Positions 1 to 6,148 of a stretch of DNA of 6,148 bases are shown here, one piece after another (the first letter of the stretch is position 1; each line of letters starts with the position of its first letter). The stretch lies in NCBI GenBank assembly GCA_023136205.1, contig JAGLRQ010000138.1, forward strand, positions 1-6,148, read 5' to 3'. This stretch comes from Candidatus Auribacterota bacterium (GTDB taxonomy: Bacteria; Auribacterota; UBA6266). A program made the translations under genes and the position numbers. The notes under the pieces are model-generated. The model was given only the letters and a program-made list of their open reading frames with translations. It was not told the DNA's origin and searched no databases.

Positions 1-1055
1 CCAACCTTGTGCTGGATAGCCCCGGATATTCCGCAGGCAATATATATTTTAGGGCATACAGTTTTTCCTGTTTGCCCGACCTGATGAGAATAAGGAATCC
101 ATCCCGCATCCACAGCAGCCCTGCTGGCACCAACAGCCCCTCCAAGGGCCTTAGCCAGATTCTCAATCAAATGAAAATTCTCAGGGCCTTTTAGAGCCCT
201 GCCCCCGGAGACAATTATATCAGCTTCAGCCAGGTTCACCGTAGCTTCCAACTCCTCCACAACTTTTAAGACTTTTGTGCGGGCTTTTGTATCCCCTTCT
301 GAAACTTTTATCTTTACTATATCCCCTTTCCTTTTTTGATCAGGAACAAGCTCCTTCATAACCTTGTGCCTGACTGTAGCCATTTGAGGACGATAGTCTT
401 TACACAAAATTGTAGCCATTATATTTCCGCCAAACGCGGGCCTGGTCTGAAGAAGAAACCCTGTTTCTCCATCAATTGAAAGCTCTGTGCAATCGGCAGT
501 AAGGCCTGTCTTGACTTCAACAGCTACTCTCGGAATAAGCGCTCTTCCTATCGAGGTAGCTCCGGTAAGAACTATTTCAGGTTTTTTCTCATTGATTATT
601 TTGGTAAGGATTTTTGCGTACGCTTCGTCAATGTAATTTTCAAGGTTTTTATGTTCCGCTACAAAAACTGTATCAGCACCGTGCTCAACAAGCTTTTTTG
701 CTTCGTGATGGACATTGTTACCAATCAAAACAGCACAGAGCCTGCAATTCCTGTCATCGGCAAGTTTTCTGCCTGCGCCCAAAAGCTCATAAGAAACCCC
801 CTGGATTTTACCTTTTTTCTGTTCGGCAACTATCCAGACATCTTTATATGACGACAGATCTTTAGTAGCGCCTTCATGATGTACCCTCATAATAATCGCA
901 TCAAATTTACATGCTTCAACGCATGCCCCGCAAAGAGTACATTTTTCTTCAATGATGACCGCAACCTTGTCACGCATTTCTATTGCGCCGAAAGGGCACG
1001 AACCAACACAGAGTTTACACCCTACACATTTTTCCAGTTCAATCTCTATTCCCAT
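1..1055 (-). CDS. etfA: Electron transfer flavoprotein alpha subunit (EtfA) fused to an N-terminal 2x[4Fe-4S] ferredoxin domain; 3' end runs off the window
   Basis: The minus-strand frame is open from the ATG at 1055..1053 to the window edge. I checked all 351 codons and found no stop, which explains why it is absent from the start-to-stop ORF track. An in-frame TAA at 1068..1070 fixes the start. The translation begins MGIEIELEKCVGCKLCVGSCPFGAIEMRDKVAVIIEEKCTLCGACVEACKFDAII. It continues through ...KDVWIVAEQKKGKIQGVSYELLGAG...RPAFGGNIMATILCKDYRPQMATVRH...AVGASRAAVDAGWIPYSHQVGQTGKTVCPKIYIACGISGAIQHKV. The last stretch matches the EtfA FAD-binding signature (IY-I/V-A-x-GISG-x-IQH). Confidence 0.92.
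   Translation of the reverse strand, partial: MGIEIELEKCVGCKLCVGSCPFGAIEMRDKVAVIIEEKCTLCGACVEACKFDAIIMRVHHEGATKDLSSYKDVWIVAEQKKGKIQGVSYELLGAGRKLADDRNCRLCAVLIGNNVHHEAKKLVEHGADTVFVAEHKNLENYIDEAYAKILTKIINEKKPEIVLTGATSIGRALIPRVAVEVKTGLTADCTELSIDGETGFLLQTRPAFGGNIMATILCKDYRPQMATVRHKVMKELVPDQKRKGDIVKIKVSEGDTKARTKVLKVVEELEATVNLAEADIIVSGGRALKGPENFHLIENLAKALGGAVGASRAAVDAGWIPYSHQVGQTGKTVCPKIYIACGISGAIQHKV
882..1055 (-). other. Ferredoxin-like domain with two 4Fe-4S cluster-binding motifs, at the N-terminus of EtfA
   Basis: There are two complete CxxCxxCxxxC motifs. The first is C10-VG-C13-KL-C16-VGS-C20-P (codons 1028..996). The second is C39-TL-C42-GA-C45-VEA-C49 (codons 941..909). The spacing is typical of a bacterial 2x[4Fe-4S] ferredoxin. 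A short linker (HHEGATKDLSSYKD) follows before the Etf fold starts. Confidence 0.88.
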
Positions 1056-1070
1056 TCTTAATGCCTTTTA

Positions 1071-1850
1071 TTATACAAAGCCGTTCTGTATTTCATTCAT
1101 AAGCTCTGCGACAACTTCATCCGCGGTACCTTTAAAAATTTTGCCGCCCTCTTTTTTAGGCGGGGTAAAAATTTTCATAACCCATGTCGGAGAACCATCA
1201 AGGCCCACCTTGCCGGTATCAATCTTTAAATCTTCGGTGGTTATAATCTTTATTTCCGACTTCTTTGCCTTCATCTTTCCTTTAAGAGAAGGCAGCCTGG
1301 GTTCATTTATTTCTTTCACAACGGTCAAAAGGACAGGCAAAGTTGACTCAACAACCTCATATCCTTCTTCCACCATTCTTTCGGATACAATTTTGCCATT
1401 CTCAATTTTTTCAATTTTCTTTACATATGTTATCTGTGGTATATCCAGATGAGTTGCAATACCCGGGCCTACCTGGGCCGTGTCACCGTCAATAGCCTGT
1501 TTGCCGCATATAATTATGTCATAACCTATTTTTTTAAGCCCTTCGGAAAGAGCAAAGGATGTAGCCAGCGTATCCGAACCCGCAAAAGCCCTGTCACTCA
1601 GAAGTACCGCTTCATCAACGCCAAGTGATATAGCTTCCCTCAGAGCCGCTTCCACCTGGGGAGGCCCCATGCTTATCACGGTAACTTTACCGCCGTACTT
1701 TTCCTTTATTCTTACGCCTTCTTCAATAGCATACATATCAAAAGGATTAATGATACTCGCAACCCCTTCCCTTACCAGAGTATTGGTCTCAGGGTCTATT
1801 CGTATATCGGTAGTATCGGGAACCTGTTTTATGCAGATAACGATATCCAC
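1071..1850 (-). CDS. etfB: Electron transfer flavoprotein beta subunit (EtfB), resembling the clostridial bifurcating type
   Basis: This is a 259-aa ORF starting MDIVICIKQVPDTTDIRIDPETNTLVREGVASIINPFD, a canonical EtfB N-terminus. It also contains VISMGPPQ and GKQAIDGDTAQVGP. The start codon is GTG (plus-strand cac at 1848..1850). AAGGAG at 1866..1861 lies 10 nt upstream. The start overlaps the upstream ACAD stop codon by 1 nt. Confidence 0.93.
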   Translation of the reverse strand: MDIVICIKQVPDTTDIRIDPETNTLVREGVASIINPFDMYAIEEGVRIKEKYGGKVTVISMGPPQVEAALREAISLGVDEAVLLSDRAFAGSDTLATSFALSEGLKKIGYDIIICGKQAIDGDTAQVGPGIATHLDIPQITYVKKIEKIENGKIVSERMVEEGYEVVESTLPVLLTVVKEINEPRLPSLKGKMKAKKSEIKIITTEDLKIDTGKVGLDGSPTWVMKIFTPPKKEGGKIFKGTADEVVAELMNEIQNGFV

Positions 1851-3004
1851 TAAATTGAAGCTCCTTCTTTAATAATATTCATCGCGATAATTCCCCGCTG
1901 AATCTGATTGGTCCCTTCATAAATCTGTGTTATCTTCGCGTCTCTCATCATTTTTTCAACGGGATATTCTTTCATATAACCGCTGCCGCCCATGATCTGG
2001 ACAGCGTCTGTGGTAACTTCCATGGCTGTATCAGACGCAAACATTTTTGCCATGGCTGATATTTTTGCTACATTCTTATCACCGGAATCAACATCTCTGG
2101 CCGACTGGTATACCAGTGTTCTTGCCGCTTCAATCTTTGTAGCCATGTCAGCCAGCATAAACTGGATTCCCTGGAAAGAAGCAATCGGTTTTTCGAATTG
2201 AACCCGTTCTCTCGCGAATTTCACAGCTTCTTCAAAGGCTCCCTGTGCAATACCAAGAGCCTGGGCTCCAACACCGGGCCTGGATTTATCAAACGTTTTC
2301 ATGGAAACCATAAAACCCGCGCCTTTGCGCCCAAGCATGTTTTCCTTAGGCACTTTACAGTCCTCAAATACCAGTTCGCTTGTCACCGACGCCCTGATTC
2401 CCATTTTATCTTCTTTCTTTCCAAAGGAAAATCCTTTCGTTCCTTTTTCAACAATAAACGCCGAAAGGCCCCTGGCCCCTTTCGCTTTGTTTGTAGCAGC
2501 TATGATAGAGTATATTTCAGCTTCCCCACCATTTGTTATCCATTGTTTTGTCCCGTTTAACACATAATAATCTCCGTCTTCAACAGCAGTTGTCTGAATT
2601 CCACCCACATCGCTTCCCGCGTTGGATTCAGTAAGGCCAAAAGCCGTGAGTTTTTTACCGGCAGCTATATCCGGAAGGTATTTTTTTTTCTGTTCGGCAG
2701 TTCCATATAAAAGAAGAGGATAGGTTCCCAGGCCGGTTGCCGCAAATGCAAGAGCAATACCACCACAGTATTTGCTTAAGGTCTCTGTAGCTATGCACAT
2801 CTCTAAACATCCGCCGCCCATACCGCCGTATTCTTCAGGCAGATAGACACGGAATATATCAGATTCAGACAATATCTTTACTATATCCCAGGGAAACTCC
2901 CCTGTTTTATCATACTCAGCTCTTACTGGGACAATTTTTTCCTTGCCGATTTTATCGCATATTTCCCGTATCATCAATTGTTCTTCAGTAAATTCGTAAT
3001 TCAT
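1850..3004 (-). CDS. Acyl-CoA dehydrogenase, short-chain/butyryl-CoA dehydrogenase (Bcd)-like flavoprotein
   Basis: The ORF-track product is 388 aa from the ATG at 3016. I place the start at the second ATG (3004), because GGAGG at 3014..3010 lies 5 nt upstream of it and Bcd-type proteins begin M-x-F/Y-x-(L/F)-T-x-EQ, here MNYEFTEEQ. ACAD hallmarks are FGLTESNAGSD, KQWITNGG, GIRASVTSELVFEDCKVP and a C-terminal KITQIYEGTNQIQ. The catalytic base Glu sits in the MCAD/SCAD position (codon 1918..1916). Confidence 0.9.
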   Translation of the reverse strand: MNYEFTEEQLMIREICDKIGKEKIVPVRAEYDKTGEFPWDIVKILSESDIFRVYLPEEYGGMGGGCLEMCIATETLSKYCGGIALAFAATGLGTYPLLLYGTAEQKKKYLPDIAAGKKLTAFGLTESNAGSDVGGIQTTAVEDGDYYVLNGTKQWITNGGEAEIYSIIAATNKAKGARGLSAFIVEKGTKGFSFGKKEDKMGIRASVTSELVFEDCKVPKENMLGRKGAGFMVSMKTFDKSRPGVGAQALGIAQGAFEEAVKFARERVQFEKPIASFQGIQFMLADMATKIEAARTLVYQSARDVDSGDKNVAKISAMAKMFASDTAMEVTTDAVQIMGGSGYMKEYPVEKMMRDAKITQIYEGTNQIQRGIIAMNIIKEGASI

Positions 3005-3009
3005 AACGT

Positions 3010-3014
3010 CCTCC
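3010..3014 (-). promoter_or_regulatory. Shine-Dalgarno sequence (GGAGG) for the ACAD gene
   Basis: The plus strand reads cctcc at 3010..3014, which is GGAGG on the coding strand. A 5-nt spacer (ACGTT) separates it from the ATG at 3004. Confidence 0.7.
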
Positions 3015-3021
3015 ATAGAAA

Positions 3022-3077
3022 AAGTTATTAGGTTATTGAGTTATTAGACAACCAATAACTTAGCAACCTAATAACCT
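3022..3077. repeat. Imperfect dyad built from phased 8-bp GTTATT units (three direct plus three inverted); on the transcript it forms a long AU-rich hairpin followed by UUUUUC
   Basis: The plus strand at 3024..3075 reads GTTATTAG GTTATTGA GTTATTAG acaa CCAATAAC TTAGCAAC CTAATAAC. The outer units (3024..3034 and 3065..3075) are an 11/11 perfect inverted repeat. The inner AGTTATT/AATAACT pair is 7/7, and the middle units match 5/8. In the minus-sense RNA the stem is followed by UUUUUC (3023..3018), then directly by the ACAD Shine-Dalgarno sequence. Confidence 0.8.
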
Positions 3078-3081
3078 GTAT

Positions 3082-4326
3082 TTATCCTTCAAATTTCTTA
3101 ACAGCCAGAGTGGCATTGTGCCCGCCAAATCCCAAGGAATTTGAGAGAACTGCCTTTACTTCAACTTTCCTCGCCTCATTAGGAACATAATCAAGATCAC
3201 AGTCGGGATCCGGGGTTTCGTAATTTATCGTAGGAGGGATAATCCCATGTTTAATAGTCATTGCGGTCGCAATTAATTCGGCGGCACCCGCCGCTCCAAG
3301 TAAATGTCCCGTCATTGATTTTGTGGAGCTTACGGCAAGTTTTTTTACATGATCACCAAATACAGCTTTAATCGCCGCGGTTTCACATTTGTCATTTAAT
3401 TTTGTAGATGTCCCGTGAGCGTTTATATAATCATAGTCGTCCTTATTAATTCCGGATTTTACAATTGCCATTTCCATCGCGCGGGCGGCGCCTTCACCGT
3501 TTGGCGTCGGAGCCGTGATGTGATGCGCATCCCCGGAAAGCCCGTATCCTACCATTTCACAGTAAATTTCAGCGTTTCTTTTTTTAGCATGTTCCAGTTC
3601 TTCAAGAAGAAGAATCCCTGCTCCCTCTGACATTACAAAACCATCTCTATCTTTGTCAAAAGGCCTGCTTGCTTTCTCCGGTTCGTTATTCCGAGTTGAA
3701 AGAGCCCTCATAGCGCAGAAGCCGCCGAAGCCTAATACCGTCAGAGCTCCTTCACTTCCACCTGCCAGCATGGCATCAGCATCACCATCCCTGATTACTT
3801 TCCATGCCTCGCCCAGTGAATGAGCGGCGCTTGCGCAGGCTGTTACCACACACATGTTGGGGCCCTTGGCCCCGACAGCAATAGATACATGTCCCGCGGC
3901 AATGTTTGTAATCAGTTTTGGAATGAGGTGAGGAGACATCCTCTTAGGGCCTTTCTCAACAAAAATCGTATGTTGTTCCTGCATTGTTTTTATGCCGCCA
4001 ATGCCTGACCCCGTATAAACACCAACCCTGTTAGGATCGGCTTTATTCATGTCAAATTCGGCATCTTCCATAGCCATTTTCGCGGCAGCAACGGCATAAA
4101 GAACAAATTTTTCCATTTTCCTTGATTCCCGTGGTTCTACATATCTCGCAGAGTCAAAGTTTTTTATTTCGCCCCCTATATGGGAATTGAATTCCGCGGG
4201 ATCAAAATATGTGAGACGGGCAATACCGCTTTTTCCTTTCAGAAGAGCATCCCAGTATTCTTTAAGATTATTACCGTTCGGAGCAATAACACCAAGGCCT
4301 GTAATTACAACACGCTTGTGATTCAT
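3082..4326 (-). CDS. fabF: 3-oxoacyl-[acyl-carrier-protein] synthase II (KAS II)
   Basis: This is a 414-aa ORF of the KAS I/II family. The active-site Cys is in VVTACASAAHSLGEA (C164). The catalytic His residues are in NAHGTSTKLND and MTGHLLGAAGA. The C-terminus has NSLGFGGHN. The gene sits immediately downstream of acpP, as in canonical fab operons. A GAGG lies about 12 nt upstream of the ATG. Confidence 0.95.
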   Translation of the reverse strand: MNHKRVVITGLGVIAPNGNNLKEYWDALLKGKSGIARLTYFDPAEFNSHIGGEIKNFDSARYVEPRESRKMEKFVLYAVAAAKMAMEDAEFDMNKADPNRVGVYTGSGIGGIKTMQEQHTIFVEKGPKRMSPHLIPKLITNIAAGHVSIAVGAKGPNMCVVTACASAAHSLGEAWKVIRDGDADAMLAGGSEGALTVLGFGGFCAMRALSTRNNEPEKASRPFDKDRDGFVMSEGAGILLLEELEHAKKRNAEIYCEMVGYGLSGDAHHITAPTPNGEGAARAMEMAIVKSGINKDDYDYINAHGTSTKLNDKCETAAIKAVFGDHVKKLAVSSTKSMTGHLLGAAGAAELIATAMTIKHGIIPPTINYETPDPDCDLDYVPNEARKVEVKAVLSNSLGFGGHNATLAVKKFEG

Positions 4327-4350
4327 AATCTATAAATTCCTCGTAATAAC

Positions 4351-4396
4351 AGGGCATCTCAAGTTCGTAATGTAAAGGAACGAACTGAAATGCCCT
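4351..4396 (-). promoter_or_regulatory. Stem-loop in the acpP-fabF spacer (possible partial terminator, attenuator or mRNA-stabilising hairpin)
   Basis: AGGGCAT (4351..4357) pairs with ATGCCCT (4390..4396), 7/7. The inner AGTTCG (4362..4367) pairs with CGAACT (4381..4386), 6/6. A small internal loop separates the two stems. On the transcript the hairpin is followed by GUUAUUACGAGG, which is only a weak U-tract. Confidence 0.45.
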
Positions 4397-4412
4397 ATGA
4401 TTTTTATAAATG

Positions 4413-4649
4413 TTATTTCTGGTGACCCTCTATATATGTTACAACATCACCGACTTTTTTTAGTTTTTCCGCTTCTTCGTCAGGTATATCAGCATTGAAT
4501 TCTTCTTCCAAAGCCATAACGAGCTCAACGGTATCAAGCGAGTCAGCCCCGAGATCATCCATAAAAGACGAATCATTTGTTACTTCCTCGGCGTTAACAC
4601 CAAGTTGTTCAACAATAATTTTTTTTACTCTCTCCGCGACTGATGACAT
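4413..4649 (-). CDS. acpP: Acyl carrier protein
   Basis: This 78-aa acidic protein contains [19 protein letters not shown], including the DSL phosphopantetheine-attachment serine (S37). It lies between fabG and fabF. A strong Shine-Dalgarno sequence is present upstream. Confidence 0.96.
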
Positions 4650-4654
4650 TATCT

Positions 4655-4659
4655 CCTCC
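4655..4659 (-). promoter_or_regulatory. Shine-Dalgarno sequence (GGAGG) for acpP
   Basis: The coding-strand sequence is AGGAGGAGATAATG. GGAGG lies 5 nt upstream of the ATG at 4649. Confidence 0.75.
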
Positions 4660-4693
4660 TTTTAAAATGAATATCAGTTATTTTCTAATTACA

Positions 4694-5437
4694 TTATGCC
4701 ATTACCATTCCACCATCAACTACAATAACCTGGCCGGTCATATATGATGAAAGTTCAGATGATAAAAACAATGCGGCGTTTGCTACATCTTCCGGCTTCC
4801 CTAAAGTATTAAGTGGAATAGCTTTTAACATCTGCTGTTTTACTTCATCTGAAAGAACATCTGTCATTTTCGTTTGAATAAATCCAGGTGCTATGGCATT
4901 TACATTAATACCCCTGGATGCCAATTCACGGGCACCTGTTTTTGTTAGGGCTATAACACCCGCCTTGGACGCGGCGTAATTCGCCTGCCCGGCATTTCCC
5001 ACAATACCGATTATGCTGGCAATGTTAATTATTCTGCCCGAACGCTGCTTCATCATAGGGCGGCTTATTGCCCGCATAAAATTAAAAACGCCCTTAAGAT
5101 TAACGCTGATAACCGTGTCCCAGTCTTTATCTTTCATACGCACCAACAAAGTATCTCTCGTCAGTCCAGCATTGTTAACGAGTATATCTATTTTACCTGT
5201 GTTGTCAAGAATTTTGTTAACAGTTTCATCGACGTTTGCCGTATTTGACACATCACACTTACAGCAAAACGTCTTTTGCCCCATTGCTTCGATTTCCGAA
5301 GCCGCGGATTTTATAGTTTCTTCAACCACATCGCACAATGCTATGTCGGCCCCTTCAGAAGCCAGTTTGAGAGCTATTGCTTTCCCTATACCCTGGCCGG
5401 AACCTGTAACTAAAGCAGTTTTTCCTTTAAGCAGCAT
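4694..5437 (-). CDS. fabG: 3-oxoacyl-[acyl-carrier-protein] reductase (classical SDR)
   Basis: This 247-aa ORF has the classical SDR motifs: TGSGQGIG (Gly-rich loop), NNAG, and the catalytic Ser...YAASKAG (YxxxK). Its length and its position between fabD and acpP are typical of FabG. Confidence 0.9.
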   Translation of the reverse strand: MLLKGKTALVTGSGQGIGKAIALKLASEGADIALCDVVEETIKSAASEIEAMGQKTFCCKCDVSNTANVDETVNKILDNTGKIDILVNNAGLTRDTLLVRMKDKDWDTVISVNLKGVFNFMRAISRPMMKQRSGRIINIASIIGIVGNAGQANYAASKAGVIALTKTGARELASRGINVNAIAPGFIQTKMTDVLSDEVKQQMLKAIPLNTLGKPEDVANAALFLSSELSSYMTGQVIVVDGGMVMA

Positions 5438-5442
5438 ATTTA

Positions 5443-5448
5443 CCTCCC
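5443..5448 (-). promoter_or_regulatory. Shine-Dalgarno sequence (GGGAGG) for fabG
   Basis: The plus strand reads cctccc at 5443..5448. A 5-nt spacer separates it from the ATG at 5437. It sits in the 13-nt gap after the fabD stop codon. Confidence 0.75.
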
Positions 5449-5450
5449 GG

Positions 5451-6148
5451 TTACTGAACCAAAGATTTTAATGTTTCAAGGCTTTTATTATTTTCCACGA
5501 CACAGCATTTTTTGCCGGAATCAATTCTTTTTAAAAGGCCTGTTAAAACTTTCCCGCAGCCAGGCTCAACAAACAGATTAATACCATTCTCTATCATAGA
5601 TTCAACACATTTTTGCCATAGCACCGGACTGGTTACCTGGGTTGCCAGAAGCGCCCTGATATCAGATTTTTCATTATAAAAACTACCTGACACGTTGCAT
5701 GTTATTTTCATCACAGGTGAAGCTAATTCAACTTTGTTAAGTTCACCAACAAGTTTTTCTTCCGCTTCACGCATTAATGATGAATGATATGCTCCTGCCA
5801 CTTTAATCTCTATTGCTCTTTTAATACCCGCTTCTTTTGCTATTTCAATAGCTTTTAAAACAGCCGGGCGGCTTCCGGAAATTACAACCTGCCCGGGAGA
5901 ATTTATATTGGCCACTCCTATCTCTCCTGTCTCTCCCGCAACTTTTTCAACAATCTCCCTTGCCGTTTTTTCATCCGAGCCTAATAAGGAGGCCATCGTC
6001 CCTTCATTCTTTTCACAGGCCTCCTGCATAAGAGAACCCCTCTTATATACAAGAGAAACAGCATCTTCGAACTTAAGTGCTCCCGCGCAAACCAGCGCGG
6101 AATATTCCCCGAGGCTTAACCCCCCGCACATTACCGGTTTAATCCTAA
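5451..6148 (-). CDS. fabD: Malonyl CoA-acyl carrier protein transacylase; 5' end lies beyond the window
   Basis: The frame stays open upstream of the track's ATG (6131) to the window edge (...RIKPVMCGGLSLGEYSALVCAGAL). Motifs include the GxSxG nucleophile elbow plus EYSALV, then KRGSLMQEA, NSPGQVVISG, AGAYHSSLM (catalytic His) and VEPGCGKVLTGLLKRI. These align along the length of E. coli FabD from its GHSLGEY motif onward. About 90 N-terminal residues are missing. Confidence 0.93.
   Translation of the reverse strand, partial: RIKPVMCGGLSLGEYSALVCAGALKFEDAVSLVYKRGSLMQEACEKNEGTMASLLGSDEKTAREIVEKVAGETGEIGVANINSPGQVVISGSRPAVLKAIEIAKEAGIKRAIEIKVAGAYHSSLMREAEEKLVGELNKVELASPVMKITCNVSGSFYNEKSDIRALLATQVTSPVLWQKCVESMIENGINLFVEPGCGKVLTGLLKRIDSGKKCCVVENNKSLETLKSLVQ

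Follow-up and report, generated by a model that had tools for sequence, protein, structure and literature searches.

Four families of bacterial enoyl-acyl carrier protein (enoyl-ACP) reductases (ENRs) are known, FabI, FabL, FabV and FabK; all serve as antibiotic targets, and with each of them a reduction dissipates about 60 kJ/mol. Enoyl thioesters are also reduced by complexes of an acyl-CoA dehydrogenase (ACAD) and an electron-transfer flavoprotein (Etf), such as butyryl-CoA dehydrogenase (Bcd) with EtfAB, and CarCDE, the caffeyl-CoA reductase-Etf of Acetobacterium woodii (6FAH). CarCDE carries an N-terminal ferredoxin domain on its EtfA homologue, CarE, and bifurcates electrons, and the high-potential acceptors listed for Etf-based bifurcation are only crotonyl-CoA, caffeyl-CoA, pyruvate and quinone (PMC5861303). 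Here we describe a stretch of 6,148 nucleotides from a Candidatus Auribacterota bacterium (contig JAGLRQ010000138.1; 'the window' is this whole stretch) in which genes for an ACAD, EtfB and a ferredoxin-fused EtfA ('the trio') directly follow a fatty acid synthesis (fab) gene cluster. We favour, with reasonable though far from complete confidence, the view that the trio is an NADH-dependent, ferredoxin-reducing enoyl-reduction module of the adjacent type II fatty acid synthase (FAS II). In this view we infer that the substrate is ACP-bound, that the reaction runs in the reductive direction and that ferredoxin is reduced.

All of the coding capacity of the window is on the minus strand, in seven co-directional genes. 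The genes and the elements discussed below are:

5451..>6148, minus strand: fabD (malonyl-CoA:ACP transacylase), 5' end beyond the window edge; Pfam Acyl_transf_1, TIGR00128 at 218 bits over profile positions 82-287
4694..5437, minus strand: fabG (3-oxoacyl-ACP reductase); TIGR01830 at 343 bits, above the cut-off of 298
4413..4649, minus strand: acpP (acyl carrier protein, 78 aa) with a DSL phosphopantetheine site; TIGR00517 at 119 bits, above 70
3082..4326, minus strand: fabF (beta-ketoacyl-ACP synthase II); TIGR03150 at 636 bits, above 494
3077..3022, minus strand: AT-rich 23-bp hairpin, then a short U run; dG -24.7 kcal/mol, z = -3.8, 0 of 200 shuffles as good
3014..3010, minus strand: Shine-Dalgarno sequence GGAGG, separated by 5 nt from the ATG of the ACAD gene at 3004, read from the sequence
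1850..3004, minus strand: ACAD-fold flavoenzyme (384 aa), candidate catalytic subunit of an enoyl-ACP reductase; PF02771, PF02770 and PF00441, all above cut-off
1918..1916, minus strand: codon of the ACAD catalytic Glu363 (IYEGT), aligned with Glu376 of medium-chain acyl-CoA dehydrogenase (MCAD)
1071..1850, minus strand: etfB (259 aa), bifurcating-type small Etf subunit, ETF domain; its start and the ACAD stop share 1 nt
1490..1464, minus strand: DGDTAQVGP motif of EtfB, read from the sequence
<1..1055, minus strand: etfA with an N-terminal 2x[4Fe-4S] ferredoxin domain, 3' end beyond the window edge; Pfam Fer4, ETF and ETF_alpha
1028..996 and 941..909, minus strand: the two CxxCxxCxxxC motifs of EtfA, read from the sequence

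An earlier sequence-only reading of this DNA had named these genes, and Pfam and NCBIfam bear the names out, with FabG, AcpP and FabF passing their equivalog cut-offs. FabD falls below its cut-off solely because it is truncated (the complete protein has 335 aa on the 20-kb locus L001). The spacing given there is exact (13, 44, 86 and 77 nt, a 1-nt overlap and 15 nt), as is the statement that the window contains no enoyl-ACP reductase: none of its proteins is an ENR homologue, FabG is its sole short-chain dehydrogenase/reductase (SDR) and is not an ENR, and no open reading frame (ORF) carries the NMO domain of FabK (TIGR03151). An in-frame ATG at 3016 overlaps the Shine-Dalgarno sequence of the ACAD gene, and gene calls on four contigs give a protein of 384 aa with a MNYEF start like that of its homologues. 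For EtfA, 351 of 399 aa are inside the window; the complete protein is encoded on L001 and its ferredoxin domain comprises the first ~60 residues.

We scanned one genome per GTDB species with the ACAD and obtained 80 loci from many phyla, with 63-72% identity. Together with four distinct loci fetched earlier (L001, L005-L007) these provide the 84 loci considered here. The orthogroup is tight, with 63-75% identity across phyla and ~55% to clostridial Bcd. Below the Auribacterota matches there is a plateau of 70-75% identity that includes TA06, Edwardsbacteria, Eisenbacteria, Omnitrophota, Lentisphaerae and Verrucomicrobiota. The catalytic Glu, described as intact from the window alone, is residue 363 and is invariant in all 84 orthologues.

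The order fabF-acd-etfBA, which the sequence-only reading proposed to look for in related genomes, proves to be part of a wider pattern. The ACAD gene directly abuts a fab, plsX, rpmF or rnc gene in 38 of the 84 loci, from at least eight phyla and at two insertion points, which rules out an adjacency limited to close relatives. It lies directly after fabF or rnc in 15 loci (Auribacterota, Omnitrophota, TA06, Eisenbacteria and Chitinispirillaceae, with Fibrobacterota among the groups concerned) and directly after fabH, plsX or rpmF, in mid-operon before fabD or fabG, in 18 (Nitrospirota, Thermodesulfobacteriota including Thermodesulfatator and Syntrophorhabdaceae, Margulisiibacteriota and Saganbacteria). 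A fab gene is found directly downstream of the module in five loci, one of which (L039) rests on a weak acpP match of 31% identity, and two further loci have fab genes within a few kb of the ACAD gene. The phyla with a fab-embedded module are Auribacterota, Omnitrophota, Nitrospirota/Thermodesulfovibrionia, Thermodesulfobacteriota, Margulisbacteria, Saganbacteria, TA06, Eisenbacteria and Fibrobacterota. Where enough downstream sequence is available, etfB and a ferredoxin-fused etfA are present in 40 of 67 loci. In a neighbour-joining tree the ACADs cluster mostly by phylum, with two clostridial Bcds outside the clade; the association with fab genes is therefore old, and was kept or re-created at two insertion points.

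The arrangement is compact in Margulisbacteria and Saganbacteria, in which ten genes follow one another as plsX-fabH-ACAD-etfB-etfA-fabD-fabG-acpP-NMO-fabF with overlapping or nearly abutting ORFs. For example, in L169 fabD already begins at 12136, before the end of etfA at 12139, an overlap of 4 nt. NCBIfam equivalogs confirm each fab gene of these operons.

A second sample was drawn irrespective of the ACAD, by scanning metagenome contigs with the window FabF, and gave 80 fab clusters. Seven of these carry the ACAD (64-68% identity): five after fabF, one as ACAD-etfB-etfA-fabG-fabF and one as plsX-ACAD-fabD. FabK is carried by two, between fabH and fabD (TIGR03151 at 494 and 459 bits, above 453), and none of the 80 carries both. 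One of the FabK clusters, L114, is on a contig assigned to the Firmicutes through the relatives of its FabK (494 bits against the model and 407 bits to Clostridioides difficile FabK, 7L00) and has the order plsX-fabH-FabK-fabD-fabG-acpP-NMO2-fabF. Three Margulisbacteria loci (L033, L169, L170) have ACAD-etfB-etfA between fabH and fabD and are otherwise co-linear with it. The trio thus stands in the operon position of FabK which, as a comparison across phyla, is the classical evidence of non-orthologous displacement. No FabK/ACAD swap within one lineage was found among three FabH relatives in Margulisbacteria and Saganbacteria; all three carry the ACAD module, so displacement is documented only across phyla (the contig of L171 ends before fabD).

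Equivalog-level ENRs are absent within 10 kb on either side of the ACAD loci, where nearby NMO paralogues score 179-254 bits against the cut-off of 453; a probe for FabI/FabL/FabV, an Escherichia coli FabI sequence, found none within 10 kb of any ACAD locus.

The sequence-only reading had cautioned that the trio might simply be a neighbouring butyrate or beta-oxidation operon, and had suggested looking for thl, hbd and crt beyond etfA. A metagenomic scaffold of 538 kb extends the locus and has the order recG-rsmD-coaD-pta-yceD-rpmF-plsX-fabH-fabD-fabG-acpP-fabF-ACAD-etfB-etfA-smc, followed by genes for an aminotransferase and an AsnC regulator and then by ribBA-ribH-nusB. This scaffold and two metagenome-assembled genomes (MAGs) encode the exact EtfB, and the nearest ACADs of named origin belong to Candidatus Aureabacteria (now Auribacterota) of the PVC group. 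A second Auribacterota species (L168, ACAD 89% identical) has an identical gene order. The trio is an insertion into a deeply conserved plsX-fab-acpP-(rnc)-smc block, and neither crotonase nor 3-hydroxybutyryl-CoA dehydrogenase nor thiolase is encoded within 10 kb of it in L001 or L168. We also clustered all ORFs of the 84 ACAD neighbourhoods. The recurrent families consist only of fab genes, yceD, rpmF, rnc, smc, rib genes, nusB, hpt, queD, tldD and similar genes; crotonase, 3-hydroxyacyl-CoA dehydrogenase and thiolase families are not recurrent beside any of these loci. In the Firmicutes members, Pfam analysis of the flanks places the trio in isolation among unrelated housekeeping genes. We have therefore rejected a butyrate or beta-oxidation operon on the grounds of smc after etfA, the 84 neighbourhoods and the Firmicutes flanks.

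The Etf itself was compared with solved bifurcating Etfs: CarDE (6FAH), those of C. difficile (5OL2), Acidaminococcus fermentans (4KPU) and Thermotoga maritima (7KOE), and Ldh-Etf (7QH2). The top five Protein Data Bank (PDB) matches of EtfB and EtfA are all characterised bifurcating Etfs. EtfB scores 249 bits against CarD, 244 against C. difficile EtfB and 240 against that of A. fermentans, compared with ~111 for human ETF-beta; the corresponding values for EtfA are 317-431 bits against the solved bifurcating Etfs and 170 against human ETF. The EtfB segment GKQAIDGDTAQVGP has a core identical to that of C. difficile EtfB and its DGDTAQVGP motif, found in almost all orthologues, is one that we take to mark the FAD-binding, bifurcating Etf group as opposed to the AMP-binding group. 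The N-terminal segment of EtfB is likewise as in solved bifurcating EtfBs. Full-length EtfA aligns end to end with CarE (6FAH_A, 431 bits), including the eight-Cys ferredoxin domain, and both ferredoxin Cys motifs are present in 49 of 51 EtfA orthologues. By these comparisons the window Etf is predicted to be of the two-FAD, NADH-oxidising, bifurcating type with a CarE-like ferredoxin domain, as first proposed from the window, and CarDE is its best solved match. Matheus Carnevali et al. described a 'putative Bcd close to EtfAB' in Margulisbacteria, Saganbacteria and Melainabacteria as part of energy metabolism and, for the Margulisbacteria Etf, judged bifurcation unlikely; the passages concerned draw no link between these genes and fatty-acid synthesis (PMC6349859). 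Our sequence comparison does not support their view that bifurcation is unlikely.

A mechanism modelled on Bcd-EtfAB and CarCDE would begin with the reduction of the EtfB FAD by NADH. At this flavin the two electrons would part: one would be driven uphill to ferredoxin, by way of the 2x[4Fe-4S] domain of EtfA or bypassing it, and the other would pass downhill, via the FAD of EtfA, to that of the ACAD. A second such round would then allow the ACAD to reduce trans-2-enoyl-ACP to acyl-ACP with its conserved Glu363, giving a net reaction of 2 NADH + enoyl-ACP + 2 Fd(ox) -> 2 NAD+ + acyl-ACP + 2 Fd(red), in which Fd is ferredoxin. Each elongation round would then return low-potential electrons usable by Rnf or hydrogenases. 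The enoyl/acyl-thioester couple lies near 0 mV. The values given for caffeyl-CoA are ~ -30 mV and, for the coupled reaction, ~ -36 kJ/mol (PMC5861303), so that the thermodynamics would be the same as for the known complexes. A fermentative metabolism has been described for the Auribacterota; Rnf and a bifurcating [FeFe] hydrogenase are reported in the Erginobacter MAG, and a sulfhydrogenase in all the Ace Lake species (PMC9324843). These Rnf and hydrogenases would serve as sinks for the reduced ferredoxin.

The catalytic subunit has the features of the ACAD superfamily: N-terminal alpha, middle beta and C-terminal alpha domains and a Glu at the MCAD Glu376 position. Its closest solved relatives are the Bcds of C. 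difficile (5OL2_C, 420 bits, ~55% identity) and A. fermentans (4L1F, 394 bits); CarC is more distant (337 bits). Such an identity to a solved Bcd leaves no doubt about the fold. It falls below every NCBIfam equivalog cut-off, the best being AcrC (acryloyl-CoA reductase; 471 against 640 bits) and the others including cyclohexane-1-carbonyl-CoA dehydrogenase, glutaryl-CoA dehydrogenase, RedW (255 bits), PigA (239) and MbtN (63). The ACAD orthologue of L033 also falls below all of them. We aligned the clade to human MCAD, whose sequence was verified against 1EGE (100% identity). In helix E the clade agrees with MCAD in length, while clostridial Bcds have one residue more. The MCAD positions Gln95 and Glu99 are occupied by Ala84 and Ala88 in the window and by Ser/Ala and Ala, respectively, in the clade (Ala at the Glu99 position in 79 of 84). 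In MCAD these side chains presumably close the bottom of the acyl pocket and are replaced by Gly in the very-long-chain enzyme, an assumption for which a literature search gave no support. Small residues here would be compatible with longer chains, as a FAS reductase would need; since Bcds are also small at these positions, this is a weak lead. The clade-specific basic residues K23, K236, R303 and K314 form a candidate ACP-docking patch, again as a lead only.

In the 77-nt spacer between fabF and the ACAD gene we found no sigma-70-like site, in agreement with the sequence-only reading, which had also placed the ACAD Shine-Dalgarno sequence shortly 3' of a hairpin (the hairpin extends to 3022 and GGAGG occupies 3014..3010). 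A terminator scan based on G+C content missed this hairpin, which is possibly a leaky terminator or an mRNA stabiliser. Its arms occur nowhere else in the 20 kb of L001, and the relative L168 has a 99-nt spacer with little sequence similarity and no significant structure (z = -1.3). The hairpin is species-specific, and we have rejected the idea of a conserved regulatory element or repeat family; being unique in 20 kb and not conserved in L168, it carries little weight either way.

The NMO-domain proteins between acpP and fabF are FabK paralogues, which we call NMO2. They are encoded at:

L033:15197-16156, NMO2
L114:8013-8957, NMO2 of the Clostridia-like Firmicutes operon
L169:14112-15086, NMO2
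L170:14029-14988, NMO2

They score 179-219 bits with the FabK model, far below the cut-off of 453, and in the PDB are marginally closest to Helicobacter pylori FabX (7E1Q, 143 bits, compared with 127-136 for FabKs). The two NMO2 proteins inspected (L033 and L114) have a CxxCxxxCx5C four-Cys motif at FabK's NAD(P)H-binding part, the part that is replaced by a [4Fe-4S] domain in FabX (7E1Q; PMC8626469). NMO2 coexists with a true FabK in L114 and is therefore not its equivalent. A real FabK in the guise of NMO2 in Margulisbacteria is for these reasons judged unlikely, and we regard NMO2 as a likely FabX-like Fe-S enzyme that would serve the anaerobic synthesis of unsaturated fatty acids beyond the Campylobacterota. 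In a Spirochaetales MAG (L040:10001-12163) a solitary ACAD of the clade, with no Etf nearby, is immediately followed by a FabK-like NMO gene that scores 254 bits (below 453) and lacks the Cys motif.

Several observations count against a role of the trio as ENR. The MCAD/Bcd-conserved residues Asp253, Arg256, Tyr375 and Glu376 of the thioester/pantetheine site (MCAD numbering) are retained, so that the sequence gives no sign of a switch from CoA to ACP, and the enzyme is ~55% identical to CoA-specific Bcds. No fab gene is within view in 44 of the 84 ACAD loci, and ~27 of the 67 with visible downstream sequence lack an adjacent Etf. The FabK-like paralogue beside the ACAD in L040, or those inside the Margulisbacteria operons, could be the real ENR, and the Firmicutes members probably also have FabK. 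In this window, moreover, a strong hairpin with a U run separates fabF from the ACAD gene; it could be a partial terminator, and we therefore only infer co-transcription of the two in this species. Part of this evidence would suit an ordinary CoA-specific Bcd/EtfAB of fermentation or fatty-acid degradation, with its proximity to fab genes due to shared acyl-thioester or lipid regulation, or to history. The closest solved relatives are indeed CoA-dependent Bcds, the best NCBIfam model (though below cut-off) is AcrC, about half of the orthologous loci are not beside fab genes, and the Margulisbacteria and Saganbacteria genes were annotated, in the passages cited above, as a putative energy-metabolism Bcd/EtfAB (PMC6349859). 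We nevertheless consider such an enzyme unlikely. It would leave unexplained the 84 neighbourhoods with no recurrent crotonase, 3-hydroxyacyl-CoA dehydrogenase or thiolase, the insertion of the module into fab operons at two independent points, with ORFs that overlap, and the replacement of FabK in a co-linear operon; the 63-75% identity across phyla, in turn, indicates one strongly constrained housekeeping function.

The linkage to fab operons would fit equally well with an acyl-ACP dehydrogenase (possibly isomerase) which, like FabX, back-tracks to enoyl-ACP for anaerobic synthesis of unsaturated fatty acids, the Etf removing the electrons. ACADs are dehydrogenases by default, and FabX demonstrates that back-tracking exists in FAS II (PMC8626469). 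This alternative has very little probability in our view: the Etf is of the NADH-oxidising, bifurcating type rather than the canonical electron-accepting one, there is no adjacent ETF:quinone oxidoreductase or FixCX, and in L033, L169 and L170 the ACAD module coexists with a FabX-like NMO while substituting for FabK. A FAS enoyl reductase might, on the other hand, operate without bifurcation, receiving electrons from reduced ferredoxin through the ferredoxin domain or simply from NADH via Etf, with no energy recovered. There is a precedent in the Fusobacterium ETF encoded beside a Bcd, which acts as a plain electron shuttle (PMC12630350), many loci have an ACAD without adjacent Etf, and Matheus Carnevali et al. 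considered bifurcation unlikely for the Margulisbacteria Etf. We regard it as improbable, given that EtfB shares both DGDTAQVGP and the N-terminal segment with solved bifurcating EtfBs, scores more than twice as high against these as against AMP-binding canonical ETFs, and belongs to an architecture identical to that of CarCDE, which bifurcates (PMC5861303). A bifurcating enoyl-reduction module of FAS II thus remains our preferred reading. Every computationally testable prediction of the sequence-only reading came out in its favour, and to this extent that reading is supported.

Among known systems, the trio resembles Bcd-EtfAB, with which it shares an ACAD with a Glu376-equivalent base (~55% identity, 420 bits), the order acd-etfB-etfA and an EtfB/EtfA of the bifurcating type. 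It differs in being embedded in a fab operon near acpP without crt, hbd or thl as neighbours, in the extra 2x[4Fe-4S] domain of its EtfA and in its ACAD, which forms a separate orthogroup with Bcds as outgroup, has Ala/Ala at MCAD Gln95/Glu99 and a helix E one residue shorter, as in MCAD. Its substrate, too, is presumed to differ, being ACP-bound and of C4-C18. CarCDE has the same three-subunit architecture, and its EtfA homologue likewise bears an N-terminal ferredoxin domain, but CarC is further from the window ACAD than Bcd is (337 and 420 bits, respectively). The car operon presumably carries CoA-transferase/ligase genes and not fab genes. FabK shares the operon slot (plsX-fabH-[X]-fabD-fabG-acpP) and is also flavin-dependent and NADH-driven, but is an FMN-containing TIM barrel that conserves no energy, whereas the trio combines an FAD-containing ACAD with a two-FAD Etf and Fe-S centres. 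The SDR enzymes FabI, FabL and FabV catalyse the reaction proposed here, trans-2-enoyl-ACP to acyl-ACP, but have no sequence or fold relationship to the trio and transfer hydride directly from NAD(P)H without a flavin. The acyl-ACP dehydrogenase MbtN and the prolyl-peptidyl carrier protein dehydrogenases RedW and PigA demonstrate that substrates tethered to phosphopantetheine are open to enzymes of the ACAD fold. Unlike the trio, they are oxidative, belong to secondary metabolism and have no bifurcating Etf, and the window ACAD is far below their cut-offs.

A number of variant arrangements were also encountered. In L171 (10195-13956) a Fic gene and two genes without Pfam hits are inserted between the ACAD gene and etfB, and L038, L039 and L067 are similar; the trio is therefore not always contiguous. 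In the TA06 locus L005 the ACAD gene follows rnc and has no adjacent Etf, and a 347-aa gene with only a faint CarboxypepD_reg match (5568-6611) is inserted between fabD and fabG. In a group of loci labelled Nitrospiraceae (L009, L014, L017, L041, L046, L050, L055, L059, L061, L062) the ACAD gene has left the fab cluster and is found mostly in a conserved hpt-queD-tldD neighbourhood (the tldD-family ORF is missing in L014, L055 and L062), mostly without an Etf; L009, and also L052, retain ACAD-etfB-etfA-fabD.

A second, different linkage of Etf and fab genes is seen in four metagenomic contigs (L118:1401-3121, L125:2588-4139, L137:10233-12001 and L151:2088-2867), in which etfB lies directly after fabF, followed by etfA where the contig continues. 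No ACAD gene lies between them in L137; the contigs of L118, L125 and L151 stop inside the etf genes or shortly beyond them. These Etfs are only 30-45% identical to that of the window, the EtfA N-termini inspected (L118 and L137) lack the ferredoxin domain, and the L137 Etfs score best against bifurcating-group models.

In L106 the fabH-fabD gap, a position taken elsewhere by FabK or the ACAD module, is filled by a 557-aa ORF (2259-3932) in the order plsX-fabH-X-fabD-fabG-acpP-fabF-rnc; this ORF has no Pfam, NCBIfam or PDB match. Finally, a phosphate acetyltransferase gene, pta (TIGR00651 at 347 bits, above 311; L001:1778-2764) is located upstream of rpmF-plsX in Auribacterota and some Omnitrophota. 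It lies directly before yceD in L001 and L168 and is also present in this block in L037, L082 and L131.

The sequence-only reading had suggested an undescribed class of FAS enoyl reductase, and a search of the full text of 8 million papers and preprints brought up no account of an ENR of the ACAD/Etf type. The components are of a known kind, that of a bifurcating complex of the Bcd/Car type; what would be new is the role in the pathway, together with the carrier. That the trio represents a fifth, previously unrecognised class of bacterial enoyl-ACP reductase, bifurcating and present in strict anaerobes of at least eight phyla, is in our estimation an evenly balanced proposition.

If this is true, an unrelated fold and mechanism would be added to a textbook pathway, and the completion of FAS II in many uncultured anaerobic lineages may be explained. 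The complex would be the first bifurcating enzyme known from core anabolism and also the first whose substrate is ACP-bound, and would provide synthetic biology with a ferredoxin-producing ENR. The widespread annotation 'butyryl-CoA dehydrogenase/EtfAB', which is read as butyrate fermentation or beta-oxidation in MAG reconstructions, would have to be corrected, and models of growth yield and redox balance for these phyla would change. Membrane-lipid synthesis in strict anaerobes of at least eight phyla would regenerate reduced ferredoxin at every elongation round, and energy-limited anaerobes would in this way recover some seven pairs of reduced ferredoxin per palmitate from biosynthesis.

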